A DNA stretch of 21,121 nucleotides, from positions 1 to 21,121 of IMG/VR virus record IMGVR_UViG_2778261276_000011. The stretch is one strand, 5' to 3'. Both the position numbers and the translations under genes were made by a program. Under the pieces are notes generated by a model. The model was not told the origin of the DNA. It made no database searches and saw nothing but the letters and a program-made list of their open reading frames with translations. This DNA comes from a virus. Its lineage: Duplodnaviria; Heunggongvirae; Uroviricota; Caudoviricetes. How positions within the stretch are numbered: the first letter of the stretch is position 1; each line of letters begins with the position of its first letter. Below are positions 2,605-12,046 of the stretch, piece by piece.

Positions 2605-2814
2605 ATGATTTATACGCATGAAATGCTATGCGATGCCCGCCGGGCGTTACATGAACTGATGATCGGACGTGCTGTGGTTTCCGTCAGCAAGGACGGGCGT
2701 CAGGTTCAGTATTCGCGGGCGACAATTGGTGAACTGCGTCAGTATATTGAAGAGCTGGAAAGTGCGCTGGGTGTATCCGGACGGCGTCGTGGCCCGGCAG
2801 GAGTGGGGCTGTGA
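2605..2814 (+). CDS. W: head-tail joining protein (lambda gpW family)
   Basis: The roughly 69-aa product (ARRALHELMIGRAVVSVSKDGRQVQYSRATIGELRQYIEELE...RRRGPAG) parallels lambda gpW ([27 protein letters not shown]...YIAELE...RRRGPAG). It lies directly after A, as in lambda. Confidence 0.85.
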   Translation: MIYTHEMLCDARRALHELMIGRAVVSVSKDGRQVQYSRATIGELRQYIEELESALGVSGRRRGPAGVGL

Positions 2815-3677
2815 ACGGGGAACTGGTGGATATTCATGGGCAGCCTTTACGGCAAAGCATGGGATATTCTGGTGGTGGTTCCGGGTTCGGTGGGCAAATG
2901 GCAGAATGGCTGCCTGCACCGGAAAGTGCCGACGTGGCGCTCTTACCTTCCATTCATCTGGGTAACGCCCGCGCGGATGAGCTGGTCCGTAACAACGGTA
3001 TTGCATCGAATGCAGTGGAAATTCATAAGGATCATATTGTCGGGCACATGTTTCGTCTGAGTTACCGTCCCAACTGGCGCTGGCTGGGGATGTCGGAAGC
3101 AGATTCACATGCTTTTATTGAAGATGTTGAGGCGGCGTGGATGGAATACTGCGATCCGGTGTTTGGTACGATGGATGTGGAAGGGCGTCGTTCGTTTACC
3201 GAATTCATTCGTGAAGGGGTGGGGGTCCATACGTTTAACGGTGAAATTTTTGTCCAGCCCGTATGGGATGCGGAATCCACGTCATTATTCCGGACGAAAT
3301 TCAAAACCATCAGCCCGAAGCGTGTCAGTACACCCGGTTATGGTACCGGCGATCGTTTTATGCGTGCCGGGGTGGAAATAAACCGACACGGAAAAGCGCT
3401 GGCCTACCATGTTCAGGATGATGACTGGCCCGGCTACGGTGTCAGTAAATGGACACGAATTACGGCAACACTGCCTTCCGGACGACCGGGAATGATCCAT
3501 GTGTTTCAGCCACAGGAAGACGGGCAGACCCGCGGGGCCAACCAGTTTTATTCTGTAATGGAGCGTCTCAAGATGCTCGACACACTGCAGGCCACGCAAC
3601 TGCAGTCGGCGGTGGTTCGCGCCATTTATGTCTATTATCTCCCCGTAGTTGTCGCCACCATTCATCAACTCCACTAA
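2811..3677 (+). pseudogene. B: portal protein (lambda gpB family), 3'-truncated: only about the N-terminal 273 codons are portal-like
   Basis: The product aligns with the lambda gpB N-terminal half (GGGSGFGGQ, LLP...GNARAD.LVRNNG, HIVG..FRLS.RP.WR.LG, FNGE.FVQ, HVF.P.EDGQTRGAN.FYSVME..KMLDTLQ.TQLQSA). Similarity stops after ...QSAVVRAIY near 3630, and the frame terminates 15 codons later, whereas lambda gpB is about twice as long. GTG start overlapping the W stop. Confidence 0.85.
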
Positions 3678-3753
3678 AACCCTTGATATGTCTGGAATGT
3701 CGTTTTTTGTATTTATGATGACCGTTCATTACCTTTCGTGTTTTTCGCGGTTT

Positions 3754-3807
3754 TGTGTATTGCAATGTGTATTGCAAGTTGGCGTTTGGATGGGGTGTGT
3801 ATTGCAA
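3754..3807 (+). repeat. three direct copies of TGTGTATTGCAA immediately upstream of int (two in tandem at 3754-3777, a third at 3796-3807)
   Basis: Exact 12-bp repeats read directly from the sequence. Their position 20-70 bp upstream of the integrase start suggests arm-type or regulator binding sites. A related ATTGCAA motif recurs at the right end of the element (11110-11148). Confidence 0.6.
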
Positions 3808-3826
3808 ATTGACGTGTAGGCTACAT

Positions 3827-5068
3827 ATGGCTATCGAGAATAAACTGACTGACAAACTTCTGAAAAGTCTTGCAGGTAAGCCGCAGGACAGACAAAAAAT
3901 CATGGCTGATGGGCGGGGGCTATCTGTTCGTGTAAGCGTGGTTGGGGGAATTAGTTTCGTTTTTTACTATCGTATTGGCGGCAGGGATGCCCCTCCGGTA
4001 TGGCTGACCCTTGGGCGTTATCCTGATATGTCTCTGGCAGCCGCCAGGAGATTACGCGACCAGTGCCGTGAATGGCTGGCGGAAAATCTGGATCCTCGCA
4101 GACAAATAAAACTTGTAGCTGAAAAAAACATGCGCCCTGTAACTGTAAGGGATGCGGTGCTTTACTGGTACGATAATCACGCCAGGACAGCCAGAAAGCA
4201 GCATGAGTATTTAATAAAAAGATTTGAAAAGCATATTTTTCCATATATCGGAGATATGGCTATAGAACAGTGCAAATTGCATACCTGGCTTACTGTATTT
4301 GACAGAATTAAAAAAAATGCTCCTGTTATGTCTGGTGCTATTTTTCTTGATATTAAACAGGCGTTACGTTTTTGCCGTATCAGGCAATACATTAGTTGCG
4401 ATCCATTCGGTGATATTAACGTTAGTTATGTTGGACGTTCAGCAGGCATAAGGGATCGTGTTCTGAGTATTAATGAAGCCGCTGACGTATGGTCTTATGC
4501 CTATGGCAACAATTTACTTACCCTTTCATCAATACATAACCGAAGAATTATGGTTATCTGCCTGGTGTTTGGTTGCCGTCAGCAGGAGGCGCGGTTATCC
4601 ACTTGGGAAGAATGGGATTTAAAAAACTGGATTTGGACAGTTCCAAAAGAGCACAGCAAGAACGGCGAGGTTATTGTAAGACCAGTCCCTGATGGAATAA
4701 AACAATGGGTTATTAATCTTTATGCGGAAACAAAGCACCGGGATTGTGTTATCGGTAGATCACTGAAGCGAGCGACAATAACAGGAGCAGCAAGCCGGAT
4801 ATGCAGGCGGCTAGGGCATGATGTAAATGGTCTGTGGTGCATACATGATTTCAGGCGTACATTTTCAACAATGCTTAACGATATGGGTGCCGATCCTTAT
4901 ATTGTAGAGCTTCTGCTTGGTCATAAAGTTAAAGGTGTGGCGGGTGTTTATAATAAAAGCAAGCATGCAAAGAAAAAACTTGAGGTTCTTAATATGTGGG
5001 TTAATTACCTTAACACGATAGCCGGATTTAATAATAACGTTATTGAACTGAGTAAAGAGGTTGTTTGA
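3827..5068 (+). CDS. int: tyrosine site-specific integrase, P4-like family
   Basis: The 413-aa product has an N-terminal arm-binding-type domain (LTDKLLKSL...DGRGLSVRVS..G.ISFVFYYR) and a C-terminal catalytic region with HDFRRT and LLGH...AGVYNKS (H-x-x-R and a Tyr nucleophile). The first ATG at 3827 is taken as start; the ORF track begins at an upstream alternative start. Confidence 0.9.
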   Translation: MAIENKLTDKLLKSLAGKPQDRQKIMADGRGLSVRVSVVGGISFVFYYRIGGRDAPPVWLTLGRYPDMSLAAARRLRDQCREWLAENLDPRRQIKLVAEKNMRPVTVRDAVLYWYDNHARTARKQHEYLIKRFEKHIFPYIGDMAIEQCKLHTWLTVFDRIKKNAPVMSGAIFLDIKQALRFCRIRQYISCDPFGDINVSYVGRSAGIRDRVLSINEAADVWSYAYGNNLLTLSSIHNRRIMVICLVFGCRQQEARLSTWEEWDLKNWIWTVPKEHSKNGEVIVRPVPDGIKQWVINLYAETKHRDCVIGRSLKRATITGAASRICRRLGHDVNGLWCIHDFRRTFSTMLNDMGADPYIVELLLGHKVKGVAGVYNKSKHAKKKLEVLNMWVNYLNTIAGFNNNVIELSKEVV

Positions 5069-5069
5069 T

Positions 5070-5327
5070 ATGTCAGTTTATTCACTTGTTGATGAAAAAG
5101 ATTTTACTGCAATGCCGGATATTGATCGTGTCATTCGTGAAAAAGAATGCGTGGCACTTACTACGCTGGCAAATTCAACACGCTGGAAACTGGAAAAGAC
5201 AGGTAAGTTCCCAAAACGTATTAAGATTGGTGAACGTGCCGCTGGCTATCGTCTCTCGGAGATTCAGGCGTGGATCCGTGGCGATTGGCACCCAGGATGG
5301 AAACCGGAAAAAACAAAACAGCAATAA
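5070..5327 (+). CDS. alpA: AlpA-family phage transcriptional regulator (small HTH protein)
   Basis: The roughly 85-aa product carries the AlpA-like motif IDRVIREKECVALTTLANSTRWKLEKTGKFPKRIKIGERAAGYRLSEIQAWI. It starts 2 nt after the int stop, the classic int-alpA arrangement of P4-like elements and enterobacterial PICIs. Confidence 0.8.
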   Translation: MSVYSLVDEKDFTAMPDIDRVIREKECVALTTLANSTRWKLEKTGKFPKRIKIGERAAGYRLSEIQAWIRGDWHPGWKPEKTKQQ

Positions 5328-5343
5328 CCAGGAGATAAACACA

Positions 5344-5369
5344 GCCCCGCTCAATGCGGGGTTTTTTGT
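5344..5369 (+). terminator. rho-independent terminator downstream of alpA
   Basis: GC-rich hairpin CCCCGC-TCAAT-GCGGGG followed by TTTTTTGT. Confidence 0.7.
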
Positions 5370-5386
5370 ATGTGAGGTAAAAAGCG

Positions 5387-5965
5387 ATGAATAAAAATAT
5401 TGCCGTGACGGGCAAAGGTGACGCTCGTCTAGTAAAAAAATTCTGTGATATTCGTGATCTGGTCGTTCTGCGCTTTGATGGTGTGAACGTTCGCGTGGTG
5501 TATCTGAACGGCGATCCGTGGTTTGTTGCAGTTGACGTGTGCGCTGCGCTGGAAATTGTTGATCACAAGGTTGCGTTACGCCGTCTCGATGATGATGAAA
5601 AGGGGGAGTGTTTAATACCCACCCTTGGCGGAAATCAAACAATGCGAACTGTATGCGAGTCAGGTTTCTACAAACTAATAGCCCGTAGCCGCAAAGCAAC
5701 GACGCCTGGCACGTTCGCCCATCGTTTCAGTAACTGGGTATTCAGAAATGTGATACCGGGTATCAGAAAAACGGGGGCTTATGGTATCCCGTGGGGCGCA
5801 TTACAGGATTTTTCCCGCCGTAAAGAGCAATATCAGATAAGTGCCAGCGAGAAGGGGAGGGAGCTACAGGCATGTAAGCGCAAAAAGCGTGAGCTGGAGG
5901 AAGAAGAAAAAAGGCTGATACGTGAATATCAGCCTGAGTTTTACTTTGGTGAGCGTATTCAGTAA
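5387..5965 (+). CDS. Bro-N domain protein (antirepressor-like) with a charged coiled-coil C-terminus
   Basis: The N-terminal region F..VNVRVVYLNGDPWFVAVDVCAALEI...RRLDDDEK...GG.Q....V.ESGFYKLI.RSRK....F..WV...VIPGIRKTGAYG matches the Bro-N consensus. RBS GAGG upstream; C-terminal KRKKRELEEEEKRL. Confidence 0.75.
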   Translation: MNKNIAVTGKGDARLVKKFCDIRDLVVLRFDGVNVRVVYLNGDPWFVAVDVCAALEIVDHKVALRRLDDDEKGECLIPTLGGNQTMRTVCESGFYKLIARSRKATTPGTFAHRFSNWVFRNVIPGIRKTGAYGIPWGALQDFSRRKEQYQISASEKGRELQACKRKKRELEEEEKRLIREYQPEFYFGERIQ

Positions 5966-6122
5966 CCACTCGCAGTGCTGATTATACGGTACATCGTGTT
6001 AACCGGGAAGCTACCCACCAGCAAGGCAAAATCTTCTGCTAAAAAATGATATATGGTCAGCCGTCCGGAAAGCATGAAATTTTACAAAAATGGAAAATGA
6101 AGATTTTTATTGTGCTGGTGGG

Positions 6123-6154
6123 TAAAAACAAAAAGCGCCCCGTTGCCGGAGCGC
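6123..6154 (-). terminator. rho-independent terminator, leftward-reading
   Basis: On the minus strand a 7-bp stem GCGCTCC / GGGGCGC (one G.U pair) with a 6-nt loop is followed by TTTTTGTTTTT. It may also act weakly on plus-strand transcripts from the Bro-N gene. Confidence 0.55.
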
Positions 6155-6248
6155 CTTTGTGAACAATTAACCTACTGCGCAAAAAATGAATCTGAGCAGT
6201 GGGATTATATCAACCGTGTGACGAAGCGCCACAATTGCCGGATAACAG

Positions 6249-6278
6249 GCAAAACAAAGGCCACCCGCTACGGTGGCC
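6249..6278 (-). terminator. rho-independent terminator, leftward-reading, at the end of the leftward cassette
   Basis: Perfect 7-bp stem GGCCACC / GGTGGCC with loop CGCTAC; on the minus strand it is followed by TTTGTTTTG. Confidence 0.6.
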
Positions 6279-6396
6279 CTTCAACACAAGCTACACGTTA
6301 TCCCCAACGCATGAGCATCACCAACAATGCCACATTTGCGGCTGGTGGGCAAAGCTTTAGCGGAATTTTTTCCCTGTTGCCTGGAGTGGGTAATGA

Positions 6397-6579
6397 TTAC
6401 TTGTATCGCTTATTCCTGCACAAAACAGGGCTGCTCTTTTTGATGAAATCCTCAAGCAAAAAACACTCTGTTGATGCTCTTGGTAATTCTCTGGTGGAAG
6501 GATGGGGTTTTATCCCCCATTTTCGTTTACGTTCTTCCAGAAAGGAGGTGAGTATATCTAGTTTCTGTGCGTCCATCAT
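6397..6579 (-). CDS. hypothetical small protein (60 aa), third ORF of the leftward cassette; coding status uncertain
   Basis: ORF in the same frame as the two upstream leftward ORFs. Only a weak RBS is present, and a plus-strand terminator-like hairpin (6502-6528) lies inside it, so this may instead be non-coding. Confidence 0.3.
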   Translation of the reverse strand: MMDAQKLDILTSFLEERKRKWGIKPHPSTRELPRASTECFLLEDFIKKSSPVLCRNKRYK

Positions 6580-6599
6580 TTTTCTCTTGGATACTTCTT

Positions 6600-6650
6600 T
6601 GTGCCATGGATCCTCACACCACGGCGCTGATAGTGGTTATTTCTGCTCTT
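6600..6650 (-). repeat. copy A of a roughly 50-bp intergenic repeat
   Basis: About 80% identical to 6851-6905, with a core CACCACGGCGCTG shared exactly. It spans the stop codon and downstream spacer of the 6637-6834 ORF. The two copies are 255 bp apart, a multiple of 3. Confidence 0.6.
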
Positions 6651-6834
6651 CAACATCACCATGTCGTGATGTTTTCCAAGTATGCGACCCCATTTTTGTG
6701 CGCCTGTACTCTTTTAAGAACTTCTCAAGGCCAAACGCACATGGCGCGAATCTCTCCTGTTCTTGTTCGCTTACCGCGTTTTTGCGTTGTTTTTTCCTGG
6801 ATGAAGATAATTTCTTTAATGATTTGTCAGTCAT
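6637..6834 (-). CDS. hypothetical small basic protein (65 aa), second ORF of the leftward cassette
   Basis: ATG preceded by AGGT about 8 nt upstream. The product MTDKSLKKLSSSRKKQRKNAV... is lysine/arginine-rich. No family recognised. Confidence 0.35.
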   Translation of the reverse strand: MTDKSLKKLSSSRKKQRKNAVSEQEQERFAPCAFGLEKFLKEYRRTKMGSHTWKTSRHGDVEEQK

Positions 6835-6850
6835 CGTAGATACCTGTAAC

Positions 6851-6905
6851 CCAGTGCGCCACAGTTCACCGCACCACGGCGCTGGTGATGGTTACTCCTG
6901 CTCTT
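6851..6905 (-). repeat. copy B of the roughly 50-bp intergenic repeat
   Basis: See copy A. It spans the stop codon and downstream spacer of the RHH gene and contains the small palindrome CACCA-N6-TGGTG. Confidence 0.6.
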
Positions 6906-7071
6906 TGGCCTTGCGACGCTGGCGGCGTTTGATCTCGCCTTGCATTGACGCAATGATGAATTGTGATGTGCTTTCGCCTGATTCTTTCACTGATTCCATG
7001 GCGTTTACTATTTCGTGTGGTACACGAGCCTTTAGAGCTTGTGATTTTGCGTTTGTTGTACCCGTTGCCAT
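6892..7071 (-). CDS. ribbon-helix-helix (Arc/MetJ/CopG-like) DNA-binding protein, candidate repressor of the element
   Basis: The 59-aa product MATGTTNAKSQALKARVPHEIVNAMESVKESGESTSQFIIASMQGEIKRRQRRKAKEQE parallels the beta-strand/helix/helix layout of P22 Arc. GAGG RBS 7 nt upstream. It is divergently transcribed from the rightward operon across an operator-bearing intergenic region. Confidence 0.55.
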   Translation of the reverse strand: MATGTTNAKSQALKARVPHEIVNAMESVKESGESTSQFIIASMQGEIKRRQRRKAKEQE

Positions 7072-7099
7072 TTCTATTCCTCTGGTGGATTGGTGGGGA

Positions 7100-7180
7100 A
7101 CAGTATACACAGAAAAAACACAAATAAAACTCTTGACGTGGACCACACCTAAAACATATAGTGGGCCACACCTTAAAATT
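7100..7180. promoter_or_regulatory. divergent promoter region with direct-repeat operators
   Basis: Rightward: TTGACG (7133-7138), 18 bp spacer, TATAGT (7157-7162). Leftward: a -10-like TATACT on the minus strand about 30 bp upstream of the RHH start. Two direct repeats, TGGACCACACCTAAAA (7139-7154) and TGGGCCACACCTTAAAA (7162-7178), flank the rightward -10. Confidence 0.5.
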
Positions 7181-7270
7181 ATCAAGGCGCATAAATGCAA
7201 AGCCCCGCAAGTGTCGTTACCACTCGCAGGGCTTCTAACCACCAACGATAGAAAGAGTATCGAGGTAGCT

Positions 7271-7474
7271 ATGAGAAATCATACCACACACCCGCAAGGG
7301 CGGGACTCGCACAACCTGAATAAATACATCTGGCGTTTTATCGCCCTGAGCACGGCACAACCGCGCGTGATTACCATCGAGGCCACCAGCGAACAGGAAG
7401 CACGCCAGCAATCTCCGGCTGGCTGCGTGATGGTATTCGCCGCCCGTATTCGCCAGGAGGTGCGCCATGATTAA
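7271..7474 (+). CDS. small protein (67 aa), possibly Icd-like (host cell division inhibitor family of P4-like elements)
   Basis: GAGG RBS. Its TAA stop overlaps the next gene's ATG region. The motif YIWRFIALSTAQPRVITIEATSEQEARQQ...VFAARIRQ resembles Icd-like proteins as I recall them; not verified. Confidence 0.45.
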   Translation: MRNHTTHPQGRDSHNLNKYIWRFIALSTAQPRVITIEATSEQEARQQSPAGCVMVFAARIRQEVRHD

Positions 7475-7679
7475 CCTGTCACTTACCGACCTTAACCGCA
7501 TTCAGTTTCGTGAGAAATTTACCGGGCAGTTGTTGGTTAATGTGGATAAAGGTCGCGTGGTGTGTAATTACCACCTGCCAGATGAAGCAATTGTCGCAAC
7601 AAGGGAATCATTACAGGAACTCGCAGAGCGTGCCGGAATGATTAACGCGAATATTCAGGGGGTGAGACATGTGCAATAA
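7467..7679 (+). CDS. hypothetical protein (70 aa), operon member
   Basis: Strong RBS AGGAGGTG; start overlaps the upstream stop; compact head-to-tail operon. Confidence 0.6.
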   Translation: MINLSLTDLNRIQFREKFTGQLLVNVDKGRVVCNYHLPDEAIVATRESLQELAERAGMINANIQGVRHVQ

Positions 7680-7911
7680 CCCCCGTCCGGACGCAGCCGC
7701 CGAAGCTATCAGAACGCTGATGCACGCGCTGATTGATATTTCATGCACGGCAGCAACCGCAGAAAAACACATTACCATAGAGCCGGAATATACAGGGGCA
7801 ATAATCCCGCATTCGCTGGCATACGCACAGCTTACCGCTGATATGGCACTGAATGAGGCCAAAGCTATCCTGATTGCTGATTGTGAAAATGGGGGGGGTG
7901 GTTATGCGTGA
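7669..7911 (+). CDS. hypothetical protein (80 aa), operon member
   Basis: RBS GGGGGTGAG; start overlaps the upstream gene by 11 nt. Confidence 0.6.
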   Translation: MCNNPRPDAAAEAIRTLMHALIDISCTAATAEKHITIEPEYTGAIIPHSLAYAQLTADMALNEAKAILIADCENGGGGYA

Positions 7912-8137
7912 TGATCGTTTTAATGCCCTGAAACAGGAATTTGATGGCGCACCGGAAGATACAGATATTGCGCTGTTATGTGTTGCTGACATGGTAAAAG
8001 CTGCATGTTTTTTACTGGAAACCGCCGAACATTCAGGAACGGGTAGCGATATTCTCAATATTGCGTCGGACTATGCGGAATATGTGGCAGAGACGCGTTA
8101 CAGAAGTAAATTCCCGGAGGGGGTGAGCCATGCATGA
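7904..8137 (+). CDS. hypothetical acidic protein (77 aa), operon member
   Basis: ATG at 7904 preceded by GGGGGGGTGG; overlaps the upstream stop by 8 nt. The ORF track's earlier start at 7874 is a non-ATG codon. Confidence 0.55.
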   Translation: MRDDRFNALKQEFDGAPEDTDIALLCVADMVKAACFLLETAEHSGTGSDILNIASDYAEYVAETRYRSKFPEGVSHA

Positions 8138-8363
8138 TATTTACAATGACACAGTAGACCATGCATACAGCGCACTTGCTTACAGTGAAAACATGCTTGA
8201 AATATTGCGCTTATGGCTTGAAACGCTTGGCGATAATGAAAGAGATAAACGCAACAGCAATATTGCAACAGCATTAATAACGCTTCTTGAGCCTGTAATA
8301 AATGAACTGCAAGAAATAGACATCTTGCACGACAGATATAAAGAGCCACACACCGGAGAATAA
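8130..8363 (+). CDS. hypothetical protein (77 aa), operon member
   Basis: RBS GGAGGGGGTGAG; start overlaps the upstream stop by 8 nt. Confidence 0.6.
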   Translation: MHDIYNDTVDHAYSALAYSENMLEILRLWLETLGDNERDKRNSNIATALITLLEPVINELQEIDILHDRYKEPHTGE

Positions 8364-8368
8364 AAACC

Positions 8369-8668
8369 ATGAAAAAGAAAAATTCTGGCTTTACTGCCAG
8401 CGGCCCCGCTCGGCCTGAAATCCGCCCAGGCGATATTTTCCGGGATAACTACGGCGGCACGGTAACGATTAAAAGTATTGCCGGACGGTGCGTTACTTAC
8501 CGCCGTGATGGGTACAGCTACGACTGCGTGATGCCTGTTTATCAGTTACGGCGTGATTTTTCGCTGGTACAGGCCACACCACGCAGACAGCCCACCAGCA
8601 ACGCAAAGGCACGGGCAAATATTCAGAAAATGAAAAACATGATTAACGCATTCAGGGGTAAAAAATGA
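8369..8668 (+). CDS. hypothetical protein (99 aa), possibly DUF4222-like
   Basis: RBS GGAGA. The motif IRPGDIFRDNYGGTVTIKSI...YRRDGYSYDCVMPVYQLRRDFSLV resembles a small phage/enterobacterial family from memory. Its stop overlaps the rep start. Confidence 0.55.
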   Translation: MKKKNSGFTASGPARPEIRPGDIFRDNYGGTVTIKSIAGRCVTYRRDGYSYDCVMPVYQLRRDFSLVQATPRRQPTSNAKARANIQKMKNMINAFRGKK

Positions 8669-10080
8669 AACTGGCACCGAACTTAAAAAAACAGCCGCAC
8701 GACAAAATGACCGAAGTCATTATTTTTGCGGGTAGTGATGCCTGGGCGCACGCGAAACAGTGGCAGGAACAGGACGGGCGACTTGCTGGCGACAACGTGC
8801 CGCCTGTATGGCTTGGAGACAACCAGCTTGACGAACTGGCAGACCTGAAAATCATCGATGATGGTCGCTATTGTGTCCGGCTGTACAAGGCAGGCCACAT
8901 CAAGCCGTCAAATATTAATGCCATCGGGCAAAAGCTGGCGGCGGCAGGTGTACGGGATGCGAATTATTACCCTGAGGGAATGCACAGCCAGAAGCTGGAG
9001 AACTGGCACGACTACCTGCAACGGATCCGCGAACAGGCAGAGCGCGGGGAAATACTTACTGACGAGCAATACAGCCAGCGAAAAACCACACTACCAATGA
9101 GCATTGGGTCCGCAGGATACGACACACAGCTTGATTATGTCGTTAAGGGCGTGATTCCGGCTAATTCGTTGTGCAGCACATACGGCGCGAGCGGTTCCTA
9201 TAAATCGTTCCTCGCGTGTTCCTGGGCGTGTCATGTTGCCACGGGTCGCCACTGGGGAGGCCGCAGGGTGGCGCATGGTTCGGTGATGTATGTTGTCGGT
9301 GAAGGGGGTATAGGTGTCCCCCGCCGTATCAAGGCATGGGAAATCGTTAATGATGAACGGGTGGAAAATTTGTACCTGGTAAACCGCCCGATTTTTCCGG
9401 CTGTCCCGCTTGATGTTGATGAAATGGTTATCGCGTCCCGCCAGGTTGAACGGGAAACGGGTAAACCGGTACGCATGATTATTCTGGATACGCTGGCGCG
9501 TTGCTTTGGTGGTAATGATGAAAATGACGCGCGGGATATGGGGGCGTTTATCCGTGGATGTGACGAACTGAAACGACGCACAGGGGCCACGGTGCTGGTG
9601 GTTCACCATTCCGGCAAGGATGAAACAAAGGGGGCACGTGGTTCCAGTGCATTTCGTGCATCTCTGGACGCTGAATACCGTATTCGCCGTGAAGGTGCGG
9701 ACAGTGAAGCCCTGGTTATCTCCTGCACCAAAATGAAGGACGCGGAGGAACTGAAAGAGGCTGCATATGATTTACGCGTGGTGGAGCTTTTTACCGACGC
9801 TGACAAGGAGTTAATCACGTCGCTGGTGGTTGTGGATAAGCCGCGCCCACCAGTTGAACTGGAGCGCATCGAGGAAGCCGGGAACAAGACGGAGAATCAC
9901 GCCGCGCTATGGGGCTGTATCCGTTCACGCACACAGCGCGGCGATAAATGCACTATCCCGTTATTGCGTGATGATATGAAAAAGCTGGGGTATGAGATGA
10001 AGCACTTTAGTCGCTGGTTACGCAAGCTGGAAAGTGACGACGTAATCGCTATTGACGGCGATGATGTTCACCCGATGTAA
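8665..10080 (+). CDS. replication initiator / helicase-type ATPase (RecA-like, AAA_25/RepA-like) with a C-terminal DNA-binding region
   Basis: Walker A-like GASGSYKS and Walker B-like VRMIILDTLARCFGG with the downstream VLVVHHSGKD typical of RepA/DnaB-like RecA-fold ATPases. The gene is immediately followed by an iteron array. Confidence 0.8.
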   Translation: MKLAPNLKKQPHDKMTEVIIFAGSDAWAHAKQWQEQDGRLAGDNVPPVWLGDNQLDELADLKIIDDGRYCVRLYKAGHIKPSNINAIGQKLAAAGVRDANYYPEGMHSQKLENWHDYLQRIREQAERGEILTDEQYSQRKTTLPMSIGSAGYDTQLDYVVKGVIPANSLCSTYGASGSYKSFLACSWACHVATGRHWGGRRVAHGSVMYVVGEGGIGVPRRIKAWEIVNDERVENLYLVNRPIFPAVPLDVDEMVIASRQVERETGKPVRMIILDTLARCFGGNDENDARDMGAFIRGCDELKRRTGATVLVVHHSGKDETKGARGSSAFRASLDAEYRIRREGADSEALVISCTKMKDAEELKEAAYDLRVVELFTDADKELITSLVVVDKPRPPVELERIEEAGNKTENHAALWGCIRSRTQRGDKCTIPLLRDDMKKLGYEMKHFSRWLRKLESDDVIAIDGDDVHPM

Positions 10081-10082
10081 AA

Positions 10083-10281
10083 AGTGGGGAACAAAAGTGG
10101 GGAGAGTGGGGAATTTAACAAAAAATCAACGTTACTCCCCACTTTCCCACCTGTATATACCCAAAAAAGTGGGGAGTAAAAAACACATTGAAAAACATCA
10201 CGTTAGAATCACAAAAAAACGAGGTGGGGAGCAAGTGGGGAATTTTAAAAAGTGGGGAACAAAAGTGGGGAGTGGTGGGGA
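10083..10281 (+). repeat. iteron-type replication origin: about 10 copies of (A/G)GTGGGGA flanking an A-rich segment
   Basis: AGTGGGGA at 10083, 10096, 10105, 10168, 10234, 10251 and 10264; GGTGGGGA at 10223 and 10274; one inverted copy TCCCCACT at 10136. Clustered copies are spaced about 10-17 bp apart. The array starts 3 nt after the rep stop. Confidence 0.8.
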
Positions 10282-10533
10282 ATGAACAGAAAAACCAGAG
10301 ATAAAACAGTGCCAAAATATCGCGCATTAGACATGACAGAGCACGCCTTAAAGGTGGCAATCAGAACGATAGACCGCCACGCCGGGGAAGGATACGCGAA
10401 AGCACATCCCGAACTGATAAGCGCATTCATGGCCACGACGGCGGCAAACTTTGCCACGCTGACAGAACGGGAGATTGCCGAAGCGGAACAGGTGACAACC
10501 ATCAACGTTAAAACCGGAGAGCAGACAGCATGA
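10282..10533 (+). CDS. hypothetical protein (83 aa)
   Basis: The ATG uses the last iteron GGTGGGGA as its Shine-Dalgarno sequence. Its stop overlaps the SSB-like gene start (ATGA). Confidence 0.5.
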   Translation: MNRKTRDKTVPKYRALDMTEHALKVAIRTIDRHAGEGYAKAHPELISAFMATTAANFATLTEREIAEAEQVTTINVKTGEQTA

Positions 10534-10952
10534 CAGCACAGATAGCGGCTTACGGGCGGCTGGTGGCTGACCCACAGTTAAAGACCACCAGCAAAGGGAC
10601 ACAAATGGCGATGGCGAGTATGGCGGTTCCCCTGCCGTGCAGCCAAGCAGATGACGGAACGGCGACGATGTGGTTATCCGTCCTGGCGTTTGGCAGACAG
10701 GCCGACGCACTGGCAAAACACCACAAAGGCGAACTGGTGAGCGTGGCGGGTAACATGCAGGTAAGCCAGTGGACAGGCCAGAACGGCGAAACGCGGCAGG
10801 GCTGGCAGGTTATCGCAGACAGCGTAATCAGTGCCAGAACGGCGCGACCGGGCGGCAAAAAAGGCCAGCAGGGCCAGGCTACTGACGCACTGAACAGGGC
10901 AAAACAACAGGCGGGAAATGATGATCCGTACTGGGATAACATACCGTTTTAA
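10530..10952 (+). CDS. single-stranded DNA-binding protein, SSB family (short, divergent)
   Basis: OB-fold layout parallels E. coli SSB (IAAYGRLVADPQL... vs VILVGNLGQDPEV...; W.SVLAFGRQAD.LAKHHKGELV...QVSQWTGQNGETRQGWQV vs WHRVVLFGKLAEV...KGSQV...RKWTDQSGQDRYTTEV). A Gly/Gln-rich linker leads to a C-terminal tip DPYWDNIPF, reminiscent of the SSB acidic tail ending DDDIPF. Confidence 0.75.
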   Translation: MTAQIAAYGRLVADPQLKTTSKGTQMAMASMAVPLPCSQADDGTATMWLSVLAFGRQADALAKHHKGELVSVAGNMQVSQWTGQNGETRQGWQVIADSVISARTARPGGKKGQQGQATDALNRAKQQAGNDDPYWDNIPF

Positions 10953-10967
10953 GCAACGAGTGACAGA

Positions 10968-10995
10968 AGCCGGGATTTTTCCCGGCTTTTTTGTG
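10968..10995 (+). terminator. rho-independent terminator ending the element's rightward operon
   Basis: Stem AGCCGGG / CCCGGCT with loop ATTTTT, followed by TTTTTGTG. Confidence 0.75.
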
Positions 10996-10998
10996 CGC

Positions 10999-11033
10999 AA
11001 AAAAAATCCCCCGGGATGAGGTTCCGGGGGATT
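10999..11033 (-). terminator. rho-independent terminator, leftward-reading; with the previous hairpin forms a bidirectional terminator pair
   Basis: Perfect 10-bp stem AATCCCCCGG / CCGGGGGATT with a 9-nt loop, preceded on the plus strand by an A8 run (a T-run on the minus strand). Confidence 0.7.
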
Positions 11034-11127
11034 TCACGCCGCTAACGTGATTAGCGCTGAATGACTCTGTGGTACAAGGAGTAAAACCACGGCATCATGA
11101 TTTCATGATTTGCAACAACAGTCAATG

Positions 11128-11148
11128 TCATTGCAAAAAATGCAATGA
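11128..11148. promoter_or_regulatory. palindromic operator-like site TCATTGCA-AAAAA-TGCAATGA
   Basis: Perfect 8-bp inverted repeat around an A5 centre, inside a region with repeated CATGATTT (x2) and TTGCAA motifs; upstream of the ORF at 11211. Confidence 0.4.
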
Positions 11149-11210
11149 TAATTAAAATCATGAATGACTTTTCGTTATGTTTATTTTTTAGTCAAAGAGG
11201 AATCTCATTT

Positions 11211-11417
11211 ATGGGAACACAGAAGCCGGGCGGTGTATCCGTGTACATCAGCCCCGATATTATCGCCGCACTTAATGCGCGCTTTGAGGAGAACGCAGAG
11301 GCAGGAAAAAAAATCGGCCTTGATCCGTTGTGCCTGGTGAAGCCGTCAGTCGGCTGGATGGTACGCAGCGATTTACGCGCTGCGCTTGGTATGAATCAGC
11401 CTCATGGGGGTAAGTAA
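11211..11417 (+). CDS. hypothetical small protein (68 aa) translationally coupled to the capsid gene remnant
   Basis: RBS AAGAGGAA. Its stop overlaps the E start (TAATG). It sits where lambda has D but does not resemble lambda gpD. It is unclear whether this belongs to the prophage or the element. Confidence 0.45.
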   Translation: MGTQKPGGVSVYISPDIIAALNARFEENAEAGKKIGLDPLCLVKPSVGWMVRSDLRAALGMNQPHGGK

Positions 11418-12046
11418 TGACAGCGCCGCAACTGGTAAGCACACCAACGCTACTGAAAAATATCGGGCGCGAAGATGTGCCGGAATTTAAATTTAATCCA
11501 CTCTTTACTACGTTGTTCTTTCCGAACGTCGCTACTTTCAGCACCAGAGATATTGCACTTGATACGCTGGATATTGAAAACGTGGTCATGAGTCCGTTTT
11601 GTTCTCCAATGTCAGGCAGCCAGGTTATGCGTGACAAAGGTTTCACAACGAACACGTTCACGCCGGGTTATATGAAGCCCAAACACGTTATTGATCCCAC
11701 CAAAACAATCATGCGCATGGCTGGAGAACAGATCGGCAATGGTCAGTCTTCCCCGGCACTACGCCGCGTAAAAATGGTTCACGACAGCCAGAAAAAACAG
11801 CTTGCTGCCATCAAAGCGCGTGTTGAATGGCTGGCGGTCAATGCCATCACAACAGGCCGTAACGTTATTGAAGGCGAAGGCATTGAGCGTTATGAAATTG
11901 ACTGGGGATTACCCGCAACCAATCATATTACGCAGGCTGGCGGGAAAGAATGGTCAAAACAGGATGCCGAAACGTTTGATCCGATAAGCGACATTGAGGC
12001 TTACGCTGATTTTTCCAAAGGTACGGTATCCGGCAGGAAACACTGA
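11417..12046 (+). pseudogene. E: major capsid protein (lambda gpE family), N-terminal fragment of about 196 codons
   Basis: The product matches the lambda gpE N-terminal half (FKF.PLF..LFF, FTPGY.KPKH, ITQ.GG.EWSK.D..T.DP..DIEAYA). Homology ends after DIEAYA (about 12006) and the frame stops at 12046, whereas lambda gpE is much longer. Confidence 0.85.

Follow-up and report, generated by a model that had tools for sequence, protein, structure and literature searches.

In satellite phage P4, the eta gene starts upstream of the constitutive promoter, and its translation prevents termination, so that late transcription crosses the immunity region (Forti 1999, as summarized in Tommasini 2023; PMC10111431). 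For the Gram-negative phage-inducible chromosomal island (PICI) EcCICFT073, overexpression of AlpA alone induces replication, and the authors call a global repressor 'unclear' (PMC6092414). Helper-embedded PICIs were described by Tommasini 2023, who placed in them a dynamic 'Bro zone' with immunity functions (PMC10111431). At exactly this position lies a leftward-transcribed block (6100–7270) in a 21,121-nucleotide (nt) stretch of viral DNA, hereafter the window (Caudoviricetes; IMG/VR record IMGVR_UViG_2778261276_000011, positions 1 to 21,121). An initial annotation, made from the letters alone, had described the block as a ribbon-helix-helix (RHH) gene followed by two small open reading frames (ORFs) and phased repeats, and had offered three candidate roles: an immunity switch, a toxin–antitoxin or abortive-infection cargo, or an RNA-based regulator as in P4.

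Judged by its gene content and order, the window is a lambda-like prophage with a helper-embedded, EcCICFT073-like satellite. The genes for the integrase, AlpA, the Bro zone, a primase/helicase and an SSB-like protein follow one another in this order, and the element sits inside a late gene of the prophage, in the same orientation, as do helper-embedded PICIs. Likeness to EcCICFT073 and other Gram-negative PICIs (Fillol-Salom 2018; Tommasini 2023) extends to both gene order and homologous DNA; a difference is that the window copy carries a rare insert, described below with its ORF3. The block is the only leftward one in the element, in agreement with the RefSeq annotation of the homologous CFT073 island, and 6100–7270 occupies the position equivalent to the P4 immunity region, between an AlpA/Vis-type gene plus a Bro-network gene on one side and replication genes on the other. 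With moderate confidence, we read it as a module for immunity and regulation, of P4 type with a protein repressor, that belongs to a Gram-negative PICI akin to EcCICFT073 and embedded in its helper. The evidence for this reading includes the co-variation of the RHH protein with putative operators and a long open frame that runs antisense to the whole cassette. For the comparison, loci with a gene for the Icd-like protein were collected, 13 from genomes and 80 from IMG/VR.

The RHH regulator and its putative operators

The regulator gene (6892–7071, minus strand) encodes a 59-amino-acid protein of the YlcI/YnfO (DUF3950) family. It matches the NCBIfam model NF041551 (YlcI_YnfO_N) with 67.4 bits against a cut-off of 30 (E = 7.9e-19) and also phrog_949; the Pfam DUF3950 model does not match the window allele but matches two alternative alleles that take its place in other loci. 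In a profile comparison, 39 homologues of the protein aligned with a profile containing Arc, Mnt and CopG (80.5% probability, E = 1.3e-5), and an AlphaFold2 model (pLDDT 81.8) has an N-terminal segment followed by two helices; Foldseek and a PDB sequence search were negative. The hallmarks of the RHH superfamily are present, namely an N-terminal strand, two helices with a G-x-S/T turn and homology to known RHH proteins, which upholds the first assignment of 7071–6892 to an Arc-like RHH gene. For the YlcI/YnfO (DUF3950) family, no function was found in the literature searched.

At this position the leftward regulator occurs as many alleles, including a second RHH family that ends in GIEPKG. As in phage immunity cassettes, conserved flanks enclose the variable part, which is limited to the N-terminal 45 codons of the RHH gene, the operators and the leader. 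Even very different RHH alleles have a conserved 3' gene end (…RRQRRKAKEQE, stop) followed by a conserved 57-nt spacer, and by this comparison the two form the left flank of an exchangeable immunity cassette.

Each locus carries three allele-specific repeats, approximately two helical turns apart, that co-vary with the RHH protein. In each allele, one copy follows the conserved rightward −35 (TTGAC/G), another lies around 22 nt further on and the third adjoins the conserved CAGTATAC, which corresponds to the leftward TATACT. The corresponding putative operators of the window are O1 (GTGGACCACACC, 7138–7149), directly 3' of the rightward −35; O2 (GTGGGCCACACC, 7161–7172), over the rightward −10 and start site; and O3 (GTGGGGAACA, 7093–7102), adjoining the leftward −10. 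O3 is degenerate in the window allele; its counterpart in other alleles has exactly the sequence of the first two copies. The direct repeats noted at 7139–7178 as possible RHH sites are these same elements, more exactly 7138–7159 and 7161–7182 (82% identity), and their change with RHH type supports the proposal. Other types have other repeats at these places: GTGGCTGACACC in the L002 type, GTGTTTAACACC in L003, GTGGTGTTCACC in L012 and GGTAATTACC in L042. Across 17 RHH specificity groups (50 loci), an operator was found in a mean of 3.6 copies in its own group's region versus 0.09 in the regions of other groups, the exceptions being groups that have a common recognition strand and the same operator across genera (L006/L064 and L009/L089). 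The Icd-like protein encoded downstream has an identity of at least 93% in all IMG/VR loci, which leaves the RHH protein, through its N-terminal 45 residues, as the only one to co-vary with the operators.

The putative operators overlap the predicted sigma-70 promoter of the Icd/Kil operon (TTGACG-18-TATAGT, 7133–7162, plus strand), whose −35 position is conserved across alleles. The leftward −10-like TATACT that had been noticed upstream of the RHH gene lies at 7102–7107 (minus strand, read from 7107 to 7102); it is the presumed RHH promoter, and CAGTATAC is kept in nearly all YlcI-type alleles. From the co-variation, we infer that the RHH protein represses the rightward promoter at 7133–7162 and its own promoter. 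Of the three roles first proposed, the immunity switch fits this co-variation best, and on sequence evidence we consider it highly probable that the RHH protein acts as immunity repressor. During quiescence, it would bind three short allele-specific operators, two of which bracket the −35 and −10 of the early promoter for the Icd/Kil-like gene and then the replication genes, and the third of which adjoins its own −10; it would thereby shut off the early operon and limit its own synthesis. Three observations count against this assignment. The N-terminal strand is absent from the AlphaFold2 monomer model; the −35 of the leftward promoter is poor; and the L030 allele has the recognition strand of L089 yet a different operator, which means that the recognition strand alone does not set specificity.

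The arrangement proposed here, with a small RHH repressor, short repeated operators that overlap promoters, divergent transcription and autoregulation, resembles the immI region of P22 (Arc and Mnt) and other RHH systems such as omega of pSM19035. In sequence the relationship is distant (profile-to-profile E = 1.3e-5). In P22, the target of Arc and Mnt is an antirepressor gene, whereas the operon presumed to be controlled here starts with Kil/Icd and continues into replication genes, and we know of no overlapping antisense frame in P22 immI. As for the PICIs, the papers name AlpA as the activator and, in the passages searched, do not mention the RHH gene, the operators or the antisense frame; nor did we find an account of these three features in the PICI literature searched, of which the coverage was incomplete. 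The analysis puts a name to a candidate repressor, a YlcI/YnfO (DUF3950) protein, and its putative operators and at least 17 specificity types open satellite immunity to direct tests.

Some RHH alleles (in loci L019, L025, L030, L075 and L090) have a conserved C-terminal extension of around 40 amino acids (…AEGSGENPLVSSLDALAQVEKIGVKAAEEIGQLV…), which may be an oligomerization or partner-binding domain.

The open frame antisense to the operon

Downstream of the predicted rightward promoter, the Icd-like gene (7271–7474, plus strand; 67 amino acids) encodes a homologue of P4 Kil. It matches NF033153 (E = 1.4e-19) and phrog_1743, the same models that are matched by the C terminus of the P4 eta/kil ORF (E = 7.8e-21 for NF033153). 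A point absent from the initial annotation is that the frame of this gene is open for 390 codons upstream, from 6101. An ORF scan thus delimits a stop-free, eta-like frame (6101–7474, plus strand) that is in phase with Icd/Kil and antisense to the whole cassette.

Chance and composition do not readily produce such a frame. Shuffles that kept the base composition of each codon position had a mean of 16.7 stops, and none of 20,000 was free of them. Over 64 non-redundant variants, the median open run upstream was 276 codons in the Icd frame versus 1 and 7 in the other two, and the mean number of stops per 333 upstream codons was 4.1 versus 18.2 and 19.4. The frame stays open through at least 17 RHH types, a different RHH family and variable cargo, as well as through the 279-nt (93-codon) insert that contains ORF3. 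At the IMG/VR locus L071 (1243–3204), two RHH modules stand in tandem, both antisense within a single open frame of 586 codons. The leftward genes are constrained in turn: in 57 of 60 variants, the regulator start codon and the Icd ATG are separated by a distance congruent to 1 mod 3, a spacing that always places the regulator gene in the phase in which the third codon positions of the two strands coincide. In 56 of these 60 variants, the regulator gene lies entirely within the open frame; of the other four, L063 and L090 have 2-nt length changes and a low-stop run in another frame. The antisense open frame and this phase rule explain why the three leftward ORFs share one frame.

Constraint on the protein sequence lies on the other strand. 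Amino-acid identity was 0.614 in the RHH frame versus 0.541 in the plus frame (RHH frame higher in 399 of 412 allele pairs), and differences at RHH codon positions 1, 2 and 3 numbered 8,003, 4,571 and 12,496, respectively. In the conserved block at 6123–6355, most of the differences between types alter the plus-frame amino acid, often radically. Because it is the RHH frame, and not the plus frame, that shows constraint at the protein level, only openness seems to be selected in the latter. That the long frame is under selection we regard as almost certain, and from these substitution patterns, it appears to be its translatability, not its amino-acid sequence, that is selected. The constraint is an unusual one, in that a frame of 250–590 codons is held open antisense to an entire operon while the leftward regulator genes are held in one phase, and it is a clear instance of selection that acts on translatability and not on a protein product.

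In P4, the eta/kil frame comprises 217 open codons with a 57-nt overlap with the 3' end of vis, and the ORF labelled 'cI gene product' in the P4 record lies in the same reading frame as the one that we read as eta/kil. Both systems have a Kil/Icd-family gene as the first early gene, and in both a longer ORF in the frame of this gene begins before the early promoter, runs across the immunity determinant and overlaps the preceding gene at its 3' end. They differ in the determinant itself. In P4, the factor is the CI RNA, encoded on the same strand, and here none was detected; instead, the presumed determinant is a protein repressor gene of the opposite strand that comes with a promoter, a second gene and terminators of its own, the whole set antisense inside the long frame. 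The frame is also 2–3 times longer than that of P4, and its product is not conserved. The P4 parallel suggested by the initial annotation therefore stands for position, architecture, the Kil/Icd homologue and the nested frame, and falls for the RNA regulator, with no match to C4, isrK or another Rfam family. The block is best read as a P4-type nested eta/kil immunity region in which a probable protein RHH repressor operon takes the place of the CI RNA.

Most left-junction types have an ATG with a GGAGG, GAGG or AAGG Shine–Dalgarno sequence at the 5' end of the frame, loci of the short type have a GTG start with AAGG inside the 3' end of the Bro-N gene, and in L034, the Bro-N start codon itself opens the long frame. 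By analogy with P4, rightward transcription from upstream, either AlpA-driven or antiterminated helper late transcription, would enter the cassette; ribosomes translating the long frame across it would protect the read-through transcript from termination; and read-through would get round the repressed promoter and run head-on into transcription of the repressor gene, so that the switch flips. Helper late transcription would come from the terminase/portal side, in line with the action of lambda Q and with the Tommasini 2023 model. The induction of EcCICFT073 by AlpA alone fits a route that bypasses a repressed early promoter. For this translation-coupled read-through, drawn from the P4 analogy, we see the chances as evenly balanced. 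We hold only tentatively, and as somewhat less probable than that, the fuller proposal that a translated 'bridge' ORF overprints the whole divergent repressor operon, that ribosomes crossing it override immunity and that the RHH protein is the master repressor that defines PICI immunity types. If true, this would be a protein-repressor version of the translation-controlled antitermination of P4, and it would link PICI regulation to the eta/kil mechanism.

Several findings weigh against translation of the frame in this role. In the window, the only early start is a TTG at 6110 without a Shine–Dalgarno sequence, and in-frame stops at 5963, 6047 and 6098 lie between the long frame and the Bro-N gene, which has the same phase. 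The frame rule is also violated in L009 and L031, with no obvious frameshift. Upstream, an intrinsic terminator (5343–5370) follows alpA, and read-through would need antitermination or a promoter that we did not find. One could therefore suppose that the frame is not translated at all, being open by chance, through composition or as the relic of an ancestral eta-like gene, and that the region is simply a divergent pair of repressor and early promoter. Such an explanation would account for a product that is not conserved as a protein, for the poor start codon of the window version and for the loci in which the frame is broken. It sits badly with the shuffles, with the 18–19 stops per 333 codons of the other frames against 4.1, with openness that is kept across RHH types, cargo and in-frame inserts such as the ORF3 module, with the 1 mod 3 spacing and with the Shine–Dalgarno and ATG at the 5' end of most junction types; we consider it unlikely.

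RefSeq sometimes annotates the long frame as an N-terminally extended 'Icd-like protein' (135 amino acids) or as a plus-strand pseudogene over ORF2; such calls occur in L003 (E. coli PSS-15, 8346–9119), where the extended one abuts the RHH gene, and on plasmid CP061267. These annotations are probably artefacts of the open frame and should be read in the light of the antisense-frame architecture.

Hairpins, terminators and a candidate small RNA

Both of the leftward terminators that had been proposed are present, with slightly shifted boundaries: T1, which ends the RHH operon, lies at 6256–6281 (formerly 6249–6278), and T2 lies at 6131–6158 (formerly 6123–6154). The stem of T1 changes in a compensatory manner in related loci, from GGCCACC/GGTGGCC to GGCGACC/GGTCGCC, and the stem of T2 also shows compensatory changes, indicating that both terminators are real structures. 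Between them, an extended −10 (TGATATAAT, 6204–6212) and a AGGTTAATTGTTC segment are both invariant. Together with T2, these elements plausibly specify a leftward RNA of around 74 nt (candidate unit 6124–6212, minus strand), which would form a separate small-RNA-like unit that stops at T2. This candidate had no Rfam match and no target within the window, and RNAalifold gave no covariation support for its 5' hairpin. The block is missing from about half of the loci.

On the plus strand, two hairpins lie in the leader of the Icd/Kil transcript. The first (7201–7233) exists in at least eight stem/loop designs across loci, all of which are able to pair. The second (7247–7263), CGATA-N7-TATCG, adjoins the Shine–Dalgarno GAGG of Icd/Kil and combines an invariant stem with a hypervariable loop, of which ten different 7-nt versions occur among 58 loci; no complementary partner co-varying with the loop was found within loci. 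An icd-type gene that is the first translated in the controlled operon and is preceded by a structured leader recalls the immI region of P1/P7 (c4 RNA, icd, ant), where control is by the c4 antisense RNA, whereas no C4 match was obtained here.

The third set of hairpins lies in the repeats of the initial annotation. These are copies of 51 nt (6600–6650 and 6855–6905) and are the longest repeat within 3550–11700. Their starts are indeed 255 bp apart, as claimed; their identity is 76% over the 51 nt rather than around 80%. The CACCA-N6-TGGTG palindrome belongs to copy A alone, copy B having CCAC-N10-GTGG. Copy A (6855–6905) consists of the last RHH codons and part of spacer A (6835–6891, minus strand), which holds a hairpin (6856–6882) and a CAGG-N8-ATG ribosome-binding region for ORF2; copy B (6600–6650) consists of the last ORF2 codons and part of spacer B (6580–6636, minus strand), a second copy of this boundary with its hairpin at 6601–6627. 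The hairpin, GCGCCGT-N13-ACGGCGC or a wobble variant, is common to both copies and to 20 further loci, and spacer A is conserved in around 27 distinct sequences from other loci. Across loci, 93.5% of cells are paired; the changes are one-sided (wobble) only, which means that covariation does not prove the structure. Compared in this way, the 255-bp 'phased repeats' represent a gene boundary (the conserved end of the RHH gene with an intercistronic hairpin and a ribosome-binding site) that is used a second time before ORF3.

The main regulator might instead be an RNA, as in P4 and P1: the small RNA (from around 6197 to 6124) or the spacer hairpins would act on the Icd/Kil leader, and the RHH protein would be accessory. 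The small-RNA unit does have a conserved promoter-like −10 and a terminator, one of the two conserved leader hairpins has a hypervariable loop as in antisense-controlled systems, and C4 and isrK matches are reported in this zone of some Gram-negative PICIs (PMC10111431). Neither C4, isrK nor any other Rfam family was matched in 3500–11500 at E values up to 1, so that a P4-type CI/C4 RNA was not detected. The small RNA lacks a complementary target in the window and the loop lacks a co-varying partner, the spacer hairpin shows no compensatory changes, and the roughly half of loci without the small-RNA block nevertheless have the RHH gene and operators. We therefore regard control mainly by RNA as very unlikely, and prefer the protein repressor as the immunity factor.

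The plus-strand hairpin and Shine–Dalgarno-like AAGGAGGTGA that had pointed to RNA rather than protein inside ORF3 do exist, the hairpin at 6499–6523 (formerly 6502–6528) and AAGGAGGTGA downstream of it at 6542–6551. Both are present only in the rare insert, and AAGGAGGTGA has no start codon at working distance. The idea that the insert is a structured RNA was dropped, because its fold energy equals that of shuffled sequence on both strands.

Small ORFs and the surrounding satellite

As first described, ORF2 and ORF3 (6834–6637 and 6579–6397) are in the frame of the RHH gene, because both spacers are 57 nt. ORF2 (6637–6834, minus strand) encodes a small basic protein of 65 amino acids that matches phrog_21027 (E = 1.6e-42). 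Its homologues form 42 clusters, found only in Escherichia, with a FAPCAFxLEKFLKEY core, variable N termini and two types of C terminus, one of which ends in EEQK or KEQE like the RHH tail. AlphaFold2 gives a single low-confidence helix (pLDDT 59.9). Other genera lack ORF2, as do many E. coli loci in which the RHH–Icd pair is present; it is probably a real but dispensable small protein. In the preferred reading of the block, a variable second gene (here ORF2, with the rare ORF3 insert) would follow the conserved hairpin/ribosome-binding junction, and the operon would stop at T1.

ORF3 (6397–6579, minus strand; 60 amino acids) is a doubtful gene inside the in-frame 279-nt insert (6356–6634). 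It has no homologue among 5.8 billion protein clusters, and the insert was found in 3 of 5,426 E. coli genomes and in a single IMG/VR locus, so its status as a conserved gene was rejected. The ORF3 module (6315–6730) is 94–99% identical in three loci, in which the RHH alleles are 100%, 59% and 43% identical to that of the window. ORF3 may be a diverged tandem duplicate of the 255-nt unit, as hinted by its weak similarity to the core of ORF2 in hhalign (E = 0.0066, probability 5.7%). DNA searches of phage and plasmid records with 6000–7400 and with the ORF3 insert returned the repeated boundary only.

The operon layout, with a small gene next to the regulator, would also be expected of a type II toxin–antitoxin or abortive-infection cargo, with the RHH protein serving as antitoxin and autoregulator and with ORF2, ORF3 or both as the toxin; PICIs are known to carry defence cargo. 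There was no PADLOC match and no match to a Pfam toxin family, however, and neither candidate toxin is a conserved partner: ORF2 is confined to Escherichia and missing from many loci and genera that have the RHH–Icd pair, its model is one low-confidence helix, and ORF3 is without a homologue. The RHH protein has no toxin-binding C-terminal domain, and what is conserved alongside it is the set of putative operators at the Icd/Kil promoter. We give a toxin–antitoxin or abortive-infection function very little credence, and retain the immunity module as the better account of the operon.

The DNA of the block is widely distributed. The region 6000–7400 matches 1,456 of 5,426 complete E. coli genomes, in pieces every time. 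None of the complete E. coli genomes searched contains the window as such, the closest match being around 85% identical over int. Homologous DNA is present in the CFT073 island (EcCICFT073) between roxA and phoQ, where the RHH protein is 100% identical, and in a second island, which lies within a prophage terminase gene in strain KFu019. In the window, lambda-type prophage genes identified by Pfam flank the satellite block: terminase (682–2601), a truncated portal gene (2811–3677) that ends directly 5' of int, part of capsid E, and the tail genes K, I and J with a tail fibre. The portal gene is interrupted by the satellite (2811–3755 and 11100–12046). Past the satellite, tail genes K, I and J are preceded by only a capsid E fragment, which suggests a deletion or rearrangement in the host prophage.

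The satellite itself starts with a tyrosine integrase gene (int, 3755–5068; Pfam) and an AlpA-like gene (alpA, 5071–5327), followed by the gene for the Bro-N protein (5387–5965; Pfam). Between alpA and Bro-N, the terminator at 5343–5370 is strong and intrinsic (CAGCCCCGC-loop-GCGGGGTTTTTTGT); at this position, CFT073 has the hairpin only, without a U-tract. Beyond the Icd-like gene lies an AAA_25 primase/helicase gene (8665–10080; Pfam), and several small ORFs and a DUF4222 gene also belong to the block. Iterons (AAAAAGTGGGGAAC and relatives, 10078–10293) are located 3' of the helicase gene and an SSB-like ORF (10530–10952) 3' of the iterons; the iteron region is likely to be the satellite replication origin.

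An 18-nt repeat (5962–5979 and 7216–7233) was discarded, given that a chance match of such quality is estimated to occur around once per 8 kb. Nine Chi sites (GCTGGTGG, either strand) occur in the 21-kb window, all within the satellite (6015–10585) and three of them within 6015–6348; in loci without ORF2, the RHH gene is followed directly by two Chi copies. A perfect 12-nt inverted repeat (TACCCACCAGCA at 6012–6023 and TGCTGGTGGGTA at 6113–6124), with a Chi site in each arm, encloses 89 nt between Bro-N and the conserved terminator block, and the junction type that carries it is one in which the long frame lacks an ATG start.

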